64,000 bases of DNA from an uncultured Methanosarcinales archaeon. Lineage in GTDB: Archaea; Nanobdellota; Nanobdellia; Woesearchaeales; SKGA01. The position numbers and the translations under genes were made by a program. Location: positions 361 to 64,360 of the forward strand of contig CAYSFC010000001.1 of the NCBI GenBank assembly GCA_964430665.1, read 5' to 3'. Shown in pieces: positions 21,328-40,519 of the stretch. The notes under the pieces are model-generated. The model did not search any database. It saw nothing but the letters and a program-made list of their open reading frames with translations, and was not told the DNA's origin. Position 1 is the stretch's first letter. Every line of letters begins with the position of its first letter.

Positions 21328-21750
21328 ATGAGCATTCATGAAAAATTACACGTTATTGAAGGAAGTTTAGAAGATTCAAATCATTTTGAAGTAGCTTATC
21401 CTATTCAAGTTTTTAAAATTAGTTACCAATTTGAACAAAAATCTGTCGATTTAGGAGATGAGGTTGAACAAAGTTATAATTTCAATAAAATTCAAAGAAG
21501 TGCAAAAACTGAGGCTTTGGATTTGTTACTTAAAACCGCACACAAGAAAACTCATTCTAAAAACTACAAAGTAATTTCTAATATTAAATATCCTTATTAC
21601 AATGTATTAATTTCTCGTTCAAATAATGATGAGAATAAAGATTTATATGATGTTAAGATAGATTTAAATGTTGAAGGAACTATTTTTAAGAAAATAAATT
21701 ACACTAAAATACTTGAAAATGCGTTATCGCAACATTTTAAAAGAGATTAA
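21328..21750 (+). CDS. hypothetical protein
   Basis: ORF only. Confidence 0.3.
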   Translation: MSIHEKLHVIEGSLEDSNHFEVAYPIQVFKISYQFEQKSVDLGDEVEQSYNFNKIQRSAKTEALDLLLKTAHKKTHSKNYKVISNIKYPYYNVLISRSNNDENKDLYDVKIDLNVEGTIFKKINYTKILENALSQHFKRD

Positions 21751-22802: not shown

Positions 22803-23006
22803 TTTTTTCTTTTTTTAAAATTTATTTAAATAATGCTCTTTAATTTTTAATCAATGTAAATTAAATTAAAAATTTAATCACATTTTCAATTAAGTATATT
22901 TTTATTACTACTTTATCACGACTTCTTTAAGTTTTCACTCCAGAGAAACAAAACTTTAAATAGTAGTATAAACTGCTTAGACTTAAAATGGAGGCGTGTT
23001 GTTAAA

Positions 23007-23891
23007 ATGTGGTACAAAGCATATGGTTATTCTCAAAACCCTTTTGAAATGAATCCTTTAAAGGAGAAAACAAACTTAATAGGGTATGAAAAAGAATTAA
23101 ATGATACAATATATCATATCTCTAAAGGATCTATTGTTTTTATAGAATCTATGAGAGGAAATGGAAGAACAAAATTTCTAAAAGCAGTTATTGACAATTT
23201 TACAGGAAAAATAATTTATGTTGATGCTGAGAAATTGAAGAAAAATTTAGATATAGAAAATCTTCTTGCGAAGAAAAATGGAAAAATTTTCTCTAAATTA
23301 CCTGATAACATGATTTTAATTATAGATAATGCAGATGAATTATCTAATGTTAATTATGAAAGATTGAAATATTTTTTTGATAAAAATAATTTAAGATCGA
23401 TTGTTTTTGCAGGAAATAATTTCAAGAAATCAAAATTACCTGAAAGTGTAAAACATAGAATTGGCGATAATATTATTTCTTTAAATGAAATAGCGAAAGA
23501 TGAATTATTTAAAATTTTCATAAATAAATTAGAAACTAATAAAGAGGAATCCTTACTTGACAAAGAGACTCTTGAAAAAGTATATATTCTTTCAAATAAA
23601 AATATAAAAAAAACAATTAAAACTTTAAATTTAATGGCTGAACAAATGGCTGAACATCAAGATGATAAGTTAAGATTTGAATATTTATCTGATGTTGAAC
23701 AAATTGATGAAGAAGATTTAGATATTTCTATGATTGACAAGGATGGTAATGAAATAGTGAAGATTGGAGAGTATTATAGAAATCCTGCTAAAGACATATT
23801 TTGTAGTAATTGTGGAGCAATTGTTAGTTTGGATGATACTTCTTGTCCAGAATGTTTAAAAGAATTTGAAGTAGAAGAGGAGGTTCAATAA
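23007..23891 (+). CDS. ExeA/GspA-like AAA (AAA_22) ATPase paralog with degenerate Walker A and C-terminal Zn ribbon
   Basis: N-terminal YGYSQNPF...LIGYEKEL matches the ExeA-type leader; P-loop position reads GNGRTKF; Walker-B-like ILIIDNADE; C-terminal CSNCG...CPEC. Confidence 0.45.
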   Translation: MWYKAYGYSQNPFEMNPLKEKTNLIGYEKELNDTIYHISKGSIVFIESMRGNGRTKFLKAVIDNFTGKIIYVDAEKLKKNLDIENLLAKKNGKIFSKLPDNMILIIDNADELSNVNYERLKYFFDKNNLRSIVFAGNNFKKSKLPESVKHRIGDNIISLNEIAKDELFKIFINKLETNKEESLLDKETLEKVYILSNKNIKKTIKTLNLMAEQMAEHQDDKLRFEYLSDVEQIDEEDLDISMIDKDGNEIVKIGEYYRNPAKDIFCSNCGAIVSLDDTSCPECLKEFEVEEEVQ

Positions 23892-23892
23892 A

Positions 23893-24597
23893 ATGGAAAA
23901 TTGGTATCATAAATTAGGATATGAAGAAAATCCTTTCACAATAAAACCTGCTTTTTTTGATGATGAAGTAATTGGTTATGATAAAGAAATTGATGATTTA
24001 GTAAAAAAACTTTCAAGTAATAAAATTTGTTTTCTTGAAGGTGAATTTGGTAAAGGTAAATCTTCAATAATAACATATATCATAAATGAGTTTGTTGGTA
24101 AAAGTAAAATAATTCATATTAGTAGGAATCGTTCAGATAGAGCACTAAATTATTCTAAACTTTTAATAGAGGCAAACAAAGGTTTTGGAAAATTATTAGG
24201 TTTTAAGGCTAAAAAAACAATTCTTATAGTTGATGAAGTTGGAAAAATAAATAAAAAAGATTGTGATCAAATTCTTAATTTATATAAAGATGGTTACATT
24301 AGATCAATTTTATTTGCAGATGTATCTTTAGATAAATCTAAAATTAGCCCTGAATTAAAAAAGAAAATTGGAAAAAACATAGTTCGTTTAAAAGATTTGG
24401 GTGTAAAAGATATTGTTGATTTAACATATAGTAGATTAGAGAATAAAGAATTAATTTCTGAAGCTTTGATAAAAAAAATATATGATAAATCAAAAAACAA
24501 TACTCGAAACTTTTTAAGTAAAATCGAATTAGTGTTTAAAAAAGCTTTCGATGAAGGTAAGGATAAGGTGACTGAAGAAGATTTATCTGTCCTTTAA
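23893..24597 (+). CDS. ExeA/GspA-like AAA (AAA_22) ATPase
   Basis: LGYEENPF...VIGYDKEI leader, Walker A GEFGKGKSS, Walker B ILIVDEVG, AAA+ lid-like C-terminus; 1-nt gap from the upstream paralog. Confidence 0.5.
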   Translation: MENWYHKLGYEENPFTIKPAFFDDEVIGYDKEIDDLVKKLSSNKICFLEGEFGKGKSSIITYIINEFVGKSKIIHISRNRSDRALNYSKLLIEANKGFGKLLGFKAKKTILIVDEVGKINKKDCDQILNLYKDGYIRSILFADVSLDKSKISPELKKKIGKNIVRLKDLGVKDIVDLTYSRLENKELISEALIKKIYDKSKNNTRNFLSKIELVFKKAFDEGKDKVTEEDLSVL

Positions 24598-24659
24598 TTT
24601 CTTTTTATTTAAAAAGGAGCACATAACCTTTATAAATAAAATTCTTTTGCTCCTAAAGT

Positions 24660-25046
24660 ATGACTGATGAAAATAAAGTTCAAATAATTATTGGATTAGT
24701 GGAACCTATTAAAATTATATCTTCAACTGATTCAAAAACTTATTTAGCTAGAATTGATACAGGGGCTCTTCGAAGTTCTATTGATAAAAAAATAGCTCAG
24801 GAGTTTAAGTTAGGACCTGTTATTAGAGAAGTTATTGTGAAGAATGCTCAAGGAAAAAGTAAACGTCCAGTTGTTAAAGTAAACATTGAAATGGCTAAAC
24901 AAAATTTTGATGGCGAATTTACAATTGCAGACAGATCTCATATGAAGTTTCCAATATTAATTGGACGAGATATACTAAATAAAGGTTTTCTAATAGATGC
25001 AACTAAAGGTTTTGAGGGTGAAAATAATGAAAGCAGCAGTAATTAG
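24660..25046 (+). CDS. retropepsin-like RimK-associated putative protease (Zn_protease/DUF785 family)
   Basis: IDTGA (D-T-G) aspartyl motif and ILIGRDIL flap-like motif; immediately upstream of, and overlapping, the RimK gene. Confidence 0.55.
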   Translation: MTDENKVQIIIGLVEPIKIISSTDSKTYLARIDTGALRSSIDKKIAQEFKLGPVIREVIVKNAQGKSKRPVVKVNIEMAKQNFDGEFTIADRSHMKFPILIGRDILNKGFLIDATKGFEGENNESSSN

Positions 25047-26106
25047 TTTAGGAAGTGTTTCAAGTAAATGGATTGTAGAAGAGATGAAAAAATTATTTGA
25101 AGAAGTAGATCAAATTGATATTAGAAATTTAGAAATAAACTTTAGTGGTAAAGGTGCAGAAATATTATATTTGGGAAAACCATTTGGAAAATATGATTGT
25201 GTTCATACATTAGGTTCATTCAGATATGCTAATTTACTTAATGCATTGACATTACTTTTAGATTCGGATGTTTTTAGAGTTACAAAAGCAACTGCATATA
25301 ATGTGGCGCACGATAAATTATTGACGCAACTAGCATTACAGAAAAACAATATTCCTATGCCTAGAACCTATGTTGCAGCAACCACTGATGCAGCAAGATC
25401 GATATTTAAACAAATGAATTATCCTATAATTATGAAATTCCCACATGGAACTCAAGGTAAGGGAGTATTAGTTGCAGAATCATTTCCTTCTGCCTCATCC
25501 ATAATGGATGCTTTATCTTATCTTAGACAACCATTCATAATACAAGAATTCATAGATACTGGTGGAAAAGATTTACGTGCAATAGTTATTGGTGACGAAG
25601 TTATTGCAGCATATGAGAGAACTGCAGCAAAGAATGAAATAAGATCTAACATTCATCAAGGTGGAGAAGGAAAAGCAATTGAGATTGATGATCACACTAA
25701 AGAATTAGCTGTAAAGGCTGCAAAAGCTGTTGGAACTAAAATTTGTGGAGTAGATATTCTTATGAGTTCACACAAAGGTCCTTTAGTTTTAGAGGTTAAT
25801 ATTAGTCCAGGACTTCAAGGAGTAACTAAATATACTGGAATTAATGTTGCAGAAAAAATAGCAAATTATTTGTTTAAAGAAGCATCTGAGAAAAAAGAAA
25901 AAGGAATGGATGAAGGTATGAAAGATATTTTATTAGATTTAGATAAAAAAGAATGTGAAAAAGCACATTTAATAACTGAATTAGATTTTAGAGGACGAAG
26001 AGTTTTACTTTCAGAAGCAATAACTCAAGGAGCGAAACTTAAAGAAAATTCAGAATATGAAGTTATAGTAAAACAAAATGAAGTTATAATTAAAAAATTT
26101 GACTAA
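25027..26106 (+). CDS. RimK-family ATP-grasp ligase (alpha-L-glutamate ligase-like) with C-terminal extension
   Basis: ATP-grasp pattern; start moved to MKAAVISLGS at 25027, which overlaps the protease ORF by 20 nt. Confidence 0.75.
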   Translation: MKAAVISLGSVSSKWIVEEMKKLFEEVDQIDIRNLEINFSGKGAEILYLGKPFGKYDCVHTLGSFRYANLLNALTLLLDSDVFRVTKATAYNVAHDKLLTQLALQKNNIPMPRTYVAATTDAARSIFKQMNYPIIMKFPHGTQGKGVLVAESFPSASSIMDALSYLRQPFIIQEFIDTGGKDLRAIVIGDEVIAAYERTAAKNEIRSNIHQGGEGKAIEIDDHTKELAVKAAKAVGTKICGVDILMSSHKGPLVLEVNISPGLQGVTKYTGINVAEKIANYLFKEASEKKEKGMDEGMKDILLDLDKKECEKAHLITELDFRGRRVLLSEAITQGAKLKENSEYEVIVKQNEVIIKKFD

Positions 26107-39665: not shown

Positions 39666-39738
39666 TTTTATTTTACCTTTTATTTTTTATTTGAAAAACA
39701 ATAATATTTTCTAGTAACATATTTACTAAGAAAATGAA

Positions 39739-39813
39739 TGCTCCCGCCGGGATTCGAACCCGGGTCCTCGGCGCGAAAGGCTGAGATGATTGGCCGGACT
39801 ACACCACGGAAGC
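39739..39813 (-). tRNA. tRNA-Glu (anticodon TTC)
   Basis: hand-folded cloverleaf; archaeal Glu/Asp-type D-arm GGTGTAGTCCGGCCAATCAT; anticodon loop CTTTCGC; one A-C mismatch in anticodon stem. Confidence 0.7.
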
Positions 39814-39919
39814 AGAATTGCCATTGATTTTAGTTGTTTTTTAAAATGTCGTCTCGCCCGATTCACAGTTAGATGGACTGCTACTTAGGTTTGAGTGAAA
39901 ATTGAGAAATTTTTTCCAT

Positions 39920-40190: not shown

Positions 40191-40308
40191 CAAAATAAAA
40201 TGTGAGCCTACGGGGATTCAACCGAACGAATTTGTAAGTGAGCGTTGTGCTGGAATAAATATGACAGCATGTTCAAATCCCAAAATAAAATGTGAGCCTA
40301 CGGGGATT
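40191..40308. repeat. 28-bp perfect direct repeat (CAAAATAAAATGTGAGCCTACGGGGATT) at 40191-40218 and 40281-40308 = duplicated tRNA-Ile 3' end plus flank, enclosing scrambled tRNA-derived fragments
   Basis: seen directly; the intervening 62 bp contains inverted copies of tRNA-Ile D/anticodon/intron segments. Confidence 0.6.
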
Positions 40309-40402
40309 TGAACCCCGGACCACTGGCTCTCTTCGAGCGACATTGCTAAAACGCAATGCTGTCATATAAGACCAGCACTCTACCAGACTAAGCTATAGGC
40401 TC
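40293..40402 (-). tRNA. tRNA-Ile (anticodon TAT) with 36-nt intron at canonical 37/38 position (intron 40329-40364)
   Basis: acceptor GAGCCUA/UAGGCUC, T-arm CGGGG-TTCAAAT-CCCCG, anticodon stem CTGGT/GCCAG, loop C-T-TAT-A then intron, A38; intron carries an internal hairpin. Confidence 0.6.
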
Positions 40403-40407
40403 AGATA

Positions 40408-40519
40408 TGCACCGACCGGGAATCGAACCCGGGCCGAAGCCTCTTTGCAAGATTGAAGATTATTAAAATTTTCTTCACATCTATGGCAAGGCCCCATTGT
40501 ACCATTCAACCACCGGTGC
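40408..40519 (-). tRNA. tRNA-Gly (anticodon GCC) with 41-nt intron at 37/38 (intron 40443-40483)
   Basis: acceptor GCACCGG/TCGGTGC, T-arm CCGGG-TTCGATT-CCCGG, anticodon stem GGGCC/GGCTT (two G-U), loop TT-GCC-A; intron hairpin GAAGA...TCTTC. Confidence 0.55.

Follow-up and report, generated by a model that had tools for sequence, protein, structure and literature searches.

The 64,000-nucleotide stretch of archaeal DNA analysed here (contig CAYSFC010000001.1, positions 361 to 64,360; the window) carries two adjacent genes, called A and B below, whose sequences mark them as a soluble, duplicated and catalytically split ExeA-type AAA+ pair that is conserved in DPANN archaea. An earlier note, made from the letters of the window, had described them as tandem paralogues of 294 and 234 amino acids (aa) spaced by 1 nucleotide (nt). 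We confirmed both open reading frames on the + strand (Table 1), and BLASTP aligned the two proteins at 28% identity over 232 aa (E=3e-29), which makes them paralogues. The common leader W-Y-x-K-x-G-Y-x-x-N-P-F is real and conserved across the A and B families, and all the other motifs quoted in the note were present as well. That reading was largely right in kind; it needed correction on the defect that defines A, on how unexpected the pair is, and on the analogies drawn with pilus, secretion and defence systems.

The proposed relationship to ExeA/GspA-type AAA_22 ATPases held as homology. On AAA_22 (PF13401, cut-off 27 bits) the window proteins scored 22.6 (A) and 14.0 bits (B), and other family members exceeded the cut-off (P0083 38.1, P0218 32.4, P0210 32.2 and P0101 29.7 bits). 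A profile of divergent family members reached bacterial AAA_22 proteins named "general secretion pathway protein A / ExeA" with E=1e-22 to 1e-11 over 94-98% of the query, and these ExeA-named proteins gave 93-96 bits on AAA_22. An hhalign comparison of the archaeal family profile with an AAA_22/ExeA-like alignment put the probability of a match at 99.7% (E=8e-27); the 232 aligned columns stretch from the leader through the whole lid. By eye, the common layout is a leader (M/W)Y..(F/L)G...NPF, more fully (M/W)Y..(F/L)G(L/Y/W)..NPF, then Walker A GxGK[ST], Walker B hhhhDE, box VII (Q/S)RI(G) and the sensor-2 motif (P/T)R.(L/I/F) in the lid. Judged by these profiles, A and B are homologous to ExeA/GspA-type AAA_22 ATPases over the full length of the module, yet they are not ExeA itself.

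Structure models of both proteins had a confident alpha-beta-alpha nucleotide-binding core followed by a helical lid, the AAA+ fold of the initiator and clamp-loader-like group. Their best structural matches were Cdc6/ORC, TnsC, clamp loaders, DnaA and MuB. Sequence searches of the PDB, with single proteins and with the family profile, returned P-loop-level matches only. The note had named Orc1/Cdc6 as an example of an identity that would speak against its reading: the Orc1/Cdc6 model TIGR02928 (cut-off 181.3) gave 15.7 bits for B and no match for A, and no winged-helix domain follows the lid. Pfam and NCBIfam scans of A and B gave no RFC match, and the Pfam scan contained neither a TniB match nor a peptidoglycan-binding domain. 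Neither protein has a transmembrane segment, the maximum 19-residue hydropathy being 0.56 for A and 0.87 for B.

We then brought 215 family members into a single profile alignment and, according to which subtype profile fitted each better, divided them into 131 B-type and 84 A-type proteins. The Walker A lysine is present in all 131 B-type proteins; at the same position A-type proteins have K in 75 cases and R in 7. In Walker B, the aspartate is kept in 130 of the 131 B-type proteins and the following catalytic glutamate in 129, whereas the A-type residue at the second position is N in 68, E in 8 and D in 8. Sensor 2 is R in 126/131 B-type proteins, as against K in 48 and R in 15 of the A-type proteins. 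The reverse was found for the box VII (SRC-position) arginine, which is invariant in A-type proteins (84/84) and replaced by a variable column in B-type proteins (L33, K19, E14, R14). In the structure model this residue of the window protein, Arg151, closes helix alpha4, ahead of strand beta5, and its column aligns with the QRI/SRIG motif of ExeA-like proteins. The full motif set (Walker A GK[ST], Walker B hhhhDE, box VII Arg, sensor-2 Arg) is absent from either chain and complete only for A and B combined. A larger set of 243 members divided into 128 with the B state, 71 with the A state, 21 complete, 17 partial and 6 other.

The family-wide marks of A are therefore the Asp-Asn Walker B, a weakened sensor 2 and an invariant arginine finger. 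The earlier note had paired an active ATPase with a degenerate partner, and the complementarity of motifs across the family strongly backs that pairing. The degenerate P-loop, on which the note had laid weight, is another matter: because 75/84 A-type proteins have K at this position and 7/84 have R, the Lys-to-Arg change is a lineage-specific, recurrent extra loss and not a family-wide mark. It is common to the nearest relatives of the window protein (P0056, P0058, P0059) and arose again in P0079, P0117 and P0205; loss of the Walker A lysine happened repeatedly in A, but B has kept it throughout. Rather than a decayed copy, A is better seen as a non-catalytic partner that donates the finger.

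Bacterial ExeA-like proteins have all four elements in one chain and no neighbouring paralogue. The same is true of an archaeal single-gene form (P0233, P0227, P0222), whose scores on the A and B profiles are nearly equal and which lacks a paralogue beside it in its three loci. Complete one-chain forms, together with reciprocal losses in the pairs, make up the pattern that subfunctionalisation after duplication predicts.

The single-gene form, found at L026 6369-7882, L029 5355-6900 and L030 5110-6724, ends in a Lys-rich tail. It is tightly preceded by the gene for a 209-251 aa protein, and the copy that was checked (L026) has one strongly hydrophobic segment, with a maximum hydropathy of 2.77. 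An OapA-like GTPase, OapB, OapC and an XPD-type helicase are encoded near it in all three loci. The closest outgroup to the archaeal family (L028 7001-8263, which is P0236, and P0238-P0241) has a nearly identical leader, MWYKAFGWEENPFSIRP, and all catalytic motifs. Several members of this outgroup are fused to a C-terminal ArsR-type helix-turn-helix, one of the genes is flanked by a type I CRISPR-Cas locus and an RPA-like gene, and a Bipolaricaulaceae bacterium is the source of one member.

A word-indexed search retrieved 55 B-type and 11 A-type relatives, and an exhaustive profile search gave 213 representatives (50%-identity clusters) at E<=1e-30. The word-indexed relatives that carry names were Woesearchaeota, Nanoarchaeota, Nanoarchaeia or Nanobdellota, the last being an archaeal phylum within the kingdom Nanobdellati. 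Since A and B are conserved in many genomes, they are not chance open reading frames. Conservation across Woesearchaeota/Nanoarchaeota-type genomes also contradicts the view, taken in the note, that such a pair is not expected in a minimal archaeal genome.

We compared 21 loci from close and mid-distance relatives, together with loci from divergent lineages; both genes were held by 20 distinct loci. In every one of these the A-type gene lies immediately upstream of the B-type gene on the same strand, with junctions of -11 to +46 nt and an overlap in 12/20. The pair persists in divergent lineages where all flanking genes differ. In close relatives (B at least 50% identical) a RimB-like retropepsin gene and a RimK-family ligase gene follow the pair, with 0-5 unrelated genes inserted between B and RimB, and this arrangement was found in 13 distinct loci with at least three upstream and at least three downstream contexts. 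The inserts include a 234-aa open reading frame of unknown family (L001), a receiver-domain protein (L003) and up to five genes (L014). RimB-RimK was not beside the pair in L013, in L020 or in the divergent lineages L022-L027, whose flanks are unrelated housekeeping genes, and PIN-Rpb7, which precedes the pair in the window, has moved away in some loci that keep A-B and RimB-RimK. The conserved unit is A followed by B, because RimB-RimK is missing from those loci and because an oligo-T run and a TATA-like box occupy the spacer between B and RimB in the window; the RimB/RimK and PIN-Rpb7 neighbourhoods belong to a single sub-lineage. Thus, of the two associations that the note had suggested checking, RimB/RimK was found beside the pair in closer relatives only, and pilus genes beside it in none of the 20 loci.

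Eight of the compared metagenome-assembled genome (MAG) records (L005, L007, L010, L011, L013, L016, L018, L020) bear the title 'uncultured Methanosarcinales archaeon'. Their gene order is that of Woesearchaeota/Nanoarchaeota MAGs, to which their proteins are 50-60% identical, and for this reason the titles are probably unreliable (placeholder or wrong taxonomy). A DRG-type GTPase (MMR_HSR1 + TGS, 363-364 aa; cluster c23) is encoded within a few kb of A-B in L022 (122-1213) and L024 (4787-5881); its proximity in two otherwise unrelated divergent loci may be coincidence.

We consider it somewhat better than even, with a probability of about 0.55, that A and B are a split-function pair that arose by an old duplication of a soluble ExeA-type (AAA_22) AAA+ module, divided its catalytic machinery and now work as an obligate hetero-oligomer and ATP switch. 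The complex would be a dimer or an alternating array in which one type of interface is competent for ATP hydrolysis. ATP would be held in the B pocket by the Walker A Lys, the Walker B Asp-Glu and the sensor-2 Arg, and the invariant box VII arginine of A would trigger its hydrolysis in trans. The reciprocal A pocket would be non-hydrolysing because of its Asp-Asn Walker B, and it would receive no finger from B. In this genome the A pocket also lacks the P-loop Lys and the sensor-2 Arg and probably no longer binds nucleotide normally, which would leave A as a pure regulatory or adaptor subunit. Attachment of the complex to the target would fall to the variable C terminus of A, which is a zinc ribbon here and a Lys-rich or acidic-aromatic tail elsewhere.

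All close relatives (ExeA, TnsC/MuB, ORC/Cdc6, clamp loaders) serve as ATP-dependent switches for assembly or loading and not as unfoldases, and by analogy A:B would do the same. Its target may be DNA or RNA, a direction in which the Lys-rich tails, the ribbon and the basic loops that follow strand beta2 (KLKK in A, RNRSDR in B) point. The junctions, with a Shine-Dalgarno-like motif for B inside A and overlaps elsewhere, are of the kind usual for translationally coupled genes. The trans arginine-finger logic of Orc1-Orc4 is also that of clamp loaders. Orc1 needs the arginine finger of Orc4 to hydrolyse ATP (PMC3597701), which makes ORC1/ORC4 a better precedent than the one offered in the note, where ExeA had stood for an active-plus-pseudo ATPase dimer; the partner of ExeA is the non-ATPase ExeB (PMC4098917).

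Several observations weigh against this reading. About ten clear B-type proteins have an Arg in the finger column, and 16 of the 84 A-type proteins retain an acidic residue after the Walker B Asp, so that the division of motifs between the two chains is strong and not absolute. B is only slightly more conserved than A, with a mean core identity of 46.0% against 43.4%. A common binding mode is disfavoured by the confinement of the zinc ribbon to 32 of the 84 A-type representatives and by tails of opposite composition in different lineages. No conserved third gene near the pair in the 20 loci points to a target, and the taxonomic breadth is based on the minority of sequences that carry names. 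What the data show is the paralogy, the fold, the homology to ExeA-type AAA_22 proteins, the lasting adjacency and the motif split; physical contact between A and B and the geometry and direction of the finger are predictions from sequence, and the switch-type action and the kind of target are likewise predictions.

One alternative is that A and B are independent homo-oligomeric ATPases, neighbours by inherited order only, with A turning into a pseudogene-like relic. The slightly faster evolution of A and the three nucleotide-site residues lost from the window copy would agree with this. Against it, A is full length and constrained in every genome (at least 40 invariant columns, including Arg151 and the four ribbon Cys), the losses in A and B are reciprocal and not random, and the adjacency survives complete flank turnover with junctions of the kind seen in translational coupling. 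We regard independence as improbable. A place for the pair in a mobile-element or anti-virus NTPase module, like the TniB/TnsC/MuB target selectors or STAND/defence ATPases, is suggested by the structural matches to TnsC and MuB and by weak matches to nSTAND families, to PADLOC mad8 and PDC-S01, and to the Mu-B-like phrog_296 (E=3e-12 for P0233). However, the PADLOC and PHROGs matches are generic, the defence scores staying at the P-loop level, and the best PADLOC scores in the window (mad8 18 bits, RecD_0_IVD 18.9 bits) come without partner genes. The pair is single-copy and syntenic among housekeeping genes (Rpb7, valyl-tRNA synthetase, FKBP, ribosomal proteins), the G+C content is uniform across the window, and no relative was found on the viral contigs searched. 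No transposase, integrase or CRISPR system accompanies the pair, the sole integrase lying about 7 kb away in L022, and a role of this kind is highly improbable.

The pair might instead power the building of a cell-surface structure by way of a membrane partner, on the model of ExeA and ExeB. ExeA, an inner-membrane protein of 60 kDa, has a transmembrane helix as well as a peptidoglycan-binding domain in the periplasm, and acts together with ExeB on a secretin (PMC4098917). The homology to the ExeA/GspA ATPase module speaks for such an envelope or pilus assembly factor, and the tight upstream neighbour of the single-gene form in three loci, a single-pass membrane protein to judge by the L026 copy, recalls the ExeA-ExeB arrangement. 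A and B themselves have no transmembrane segment or peptidoglycan-binding domain, the 20 loci show no conserved neighbouring gene for a pilin, a secretin, a PilB/PilT-type ATPase or a membrane protein, and the Lys-rich tails and zinc ribbon fit a nucleic-acid partner better. We found no ExeB/GspB, secretin or other type II secretion gene in the window neighbourhood or in the 20 related loci, and this reading seems quite unlikely to us. No pilus, secretion, transposase or defence genes accompany the pair, and the analogies that the note had drawn with such systems need correcting.

It is also improbable that the pair forms a four-gene module with RimB-RimK, in which A:B delivers, or is, the substrate of a RimK-type C-terminal glutamate ligase and the RimB-like retropepsin trims the modification. 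The bacterial RimABK system modifies ribosomal protein S6 (PMC7343187, PMC11957791). The identities of RimK and RimB are solid, the arrangement recurs in the 13 loci given above, including loci without an adjacent PIN-Rpb7, and window A ends in the acidic tail EFEVEEEVQ. Set against this are the loci in which RimB-RimK is absent, the unrelated genes inserted between B and RimB, the oligo-T run and separate TATA-like box of the spacer, and the lack of a conserved C-terminal Glu on A, B or Rpb7; the LysW-like and Spt4-like scores of the A ribbon are negligible. Within Woesearchaeales such a module is possible.

The pair differs from each of the closest known systems in some respect. Compared with ExeA/GspA, the archaeal proteins have no transmembrane helix, periplasmic domain or ExeB/GspB partner, there is no secretin at their loci, their host is archaeal (DPANN), and two specialised paralogues take the place of one complete chain. 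They differ from ORC1-ORC4 and Cdc6-ORC1 in having no winged-helix domain, sequence-profile matches to Orc/Cdc6 chains of the PDB were insignificant, and nothing in the analysis ties them to replication origins. Clamp loaders (RFC small subunits, bacterial gamma/tau, phage gp44) have a collar domain III that holds the pentamer; this domain and the RFC box motifs are missing from A and B. TnsC, TniB and MuB form homo-oligomeric filaments, in contrast to a heteromeric paralogue pair at a stable chromosomal site without a transposase or other mobile-element context. It would be a bold extension, and one we hold to be unlikely, that A:B is a lineage-defining and near-universal core machine of Nanoarchaeota/Woesearchaeota-type DPANN archaea. 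On this view a minimal two-subunit ATP switch resembling ORC or clamp loaders would have arisen independently, when an ExeA-type ancestor had its single active site split between two paralogues, and it would load or remodel a complex bound to nucleic acid (replication, transcription or chromatin); in Woesearchaeales it might also be coupled to RimK-type glutamylation.

A literature search for this ATPase family in DPANN archaea returned nothing specific, and the pair has no functional annotation, sources calling its members "hypothetical", "RarA", "DnaA" or "ExeA". A two-gene module that stays adjacent through complete neighbour turnover in very small DPANN genomes is likely to have an important role. 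The family is also a clean natural example of an AAA+ active site divided between paralogues, in which single-gene complete and paired reciprocal forms coexist. As both proteins are small and soluble, which way the finger points and what the non-catalytic pocket does can be tested directly. Should the target prove to be DNA or RNA, the pair would add a so far unrecognised factor to the information processing of a major archaeal radiation.

The coordinates of the features discussed here are collected in Table 1.

Table 1. Features of the A-B locus (positions in the window)
Feature	Position	Strand	Remarks
Putative promoter and ribosome-binding region of the A-B unit	22955..22994	+	TTTAAATA (22955-22962) and GGAGG (22990-22994); read from sequence
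Gene A, 294-aa A-type subunit	23007..23891	+	AAA+ core, lid, acidic linker, C4 zinc ribbon
A, N-terminal ExeA-type leader	23007..23057	+	MWYKAYGYSQNPFEMNP; kept in A and B families and in bacterial ExeA-like proteins (MYxxFGLxENPF); aligned by hhalign
A, Walker A, degenerate	23148..23171	+	SMRGNGRT; Lys54 replaced by Arg
A, Walker B	23313..23330	+	ILIIDN; catalytic Glu replaced by Asn
A, candidate box VII (SRC-position) arginine finger	23457..23459	+	Arg151
A, sensor-2 position	23607..23609	+	Lys201 in place of Arg
A, C4 zinc ribbon	23802..23855	+	CSNCGAIVSLDDTSCPEC (CSNC...CPEC); PF13240
Shine-Dalgarno-like motif within the last codons of A	23879..23884	+	GGAGGT, 8 nt before the B ATG; read from sequence
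Gene B, 234-aa B-type subunit	23893..24597	+	AAA+ core and four-helix lid only
B, Walker A	24040..24063	+	GEFGKGKS
B, basic loop after strand beta2	24124..24141	+	RNRSDR; in B-type proteins N79 100/131, R80 90/131, D/E82 107/131
B, Walker B	24220..24237	+	ILIVDE
B, sensor 2	24505..24507	+	Arg205, start of third lid helix (helix 204-220 in model)
B-RimB spacer	24598..24659	+	oligo-T run (24598-24610) and TATA-like TTTATAAATA (24629-24638); read from sequence

The C terminus of A looks like an adaptor. When its last 52 aa were scanned alone, the ribbon matched PF13240 (Zn_Ribbon_1) with 30.9 bits against a cut-off of 25, and in the whole-protein Pfam scan it gave 20.4 bits, below the cut-off. 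The four ribbon Cys are invariant across 14 aligned A orthologues. The tails that follow the ribbon vary by lineage and are either Lys-rich or long and acidic, with repeated DDFFDDD-type motifs. Two further identities of this region were considered and rejected. A LysW-like carrier or RimK substrate, made up of the ribbon and the acidic tail, did not agree with tails that vary between acidic and Lys-rich without a conserved terminal Glu, and the LysW ribbon model gave 11.5 bits (E=0.25). A fused Spt4/RpoE'' domain, an idea taken from the position after Rpb7, gave E=0.11 on PF06093, and too few residues extend beyond the ribbon. In a divergent A-type lineage (P0084 at L024 6992-8554 and its relatives P0079, P0082 and P0089) the acidic tails reach 200-290 aa with repeated aromatic-acidic motifs (DDLDDFFDDD, VFDDFFDDD, YDDFFDDDFEK), which resemble short linear interaction motifs.

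The B chain ends after the lid, and in the model its 234 aa accommodate domains I and II only. Its basic loop follows strand beta2, where related AAA+ proteins have their initiator-specific motif and DNA-contacting elements, and the loop may contact nucleic acid. Lys-rich tails occur on many A and B orthologues, and the Pfam scan of longer family members detected no fused domain, their extensions being low-complexity tails. Some B-type tails end in ...EYK(V/I)(F/Y)F(V/A)(D/F)(E/N). An extra conserved C-terminal domain of about 70 aa is present in some B-type proteins (L014 1963-3087; P0024, P0033, P0039, P0042, P0045); it has no Pfam match and follows the pattern ...KRDANLIAF..HEVDTVLKKFG....REQLKEIGL.WKKD..WKPHNRKNFYAYVEKT.AL.

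The window has a uniform G+C content of about 27-30% throughout, in a genome of 27% G+C. Between 21.7 and 28.5 kb the + strand encodes, in order, PIN_9, Rpb7/RpoE (SHS2+S1), A, B, the RimB-like retropepsin, the RimK-family ligase and an aminoacyl-tRNA synthetase. The note had placed a RimK/retropepsin pair directly downstream on the same strand, and the profiles bear this out: RimB, directly 3' of B, scored 55.7 bits on PF05618 (cut-off 27) and RimK, which follows it, 209.5 bits on TIGR00768 (cut-off 143.4). The synthetase after RimK is an 805-aa class I enzyme, and its valyl label was assigned by eye. An oligo-T run follows the Rpb7 stop codon 5' of A, which is weak evidence in a genome of this composition. 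The signals in the B-RimB spacer suggest that RimB-RimK is a transcription unit separate from A-B. Rpb7 itself, which ends in VEE in the window, was rejected as a RimK substrate, only 5/12 orthologue tails being Glu-terminal.

Minor observations were also made on the neighbouring genes. The start of RimK is probably the Met at 25027 (MKAAVISLG), overlapping the end of RimB by 20 nt. Residues ~296-369 of the ligase (window 24997-26106) form a conserved C-terminal extension of about 75 aa with no Pfam match and the pattern ...DFRGxRVLLPEVI...YEF...GE..IKKF; it is also present in L001 8056-9180 and other loci and, by eye only, resembles an AbrB/SpoVT-type swapped-hairpin domain. A 140-aa open reading frame between FKBP and PIN_9 (21328-21750, + strand) has no Pfam match, and a relative at the same position (23% identity, weak) was found in L006 only. 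Finally, Rfam gave two tRNA matches on the - strand, at 40293-40402 (110 nt, 57.9 bits) and 40408-40519 (112 nt, 45.4 bits), neither of which was reported by ARAGORN. They adjoin tRNA-Glu (39738-39814), and their length suggests tandem intron-containing archaeal tRNA genes.

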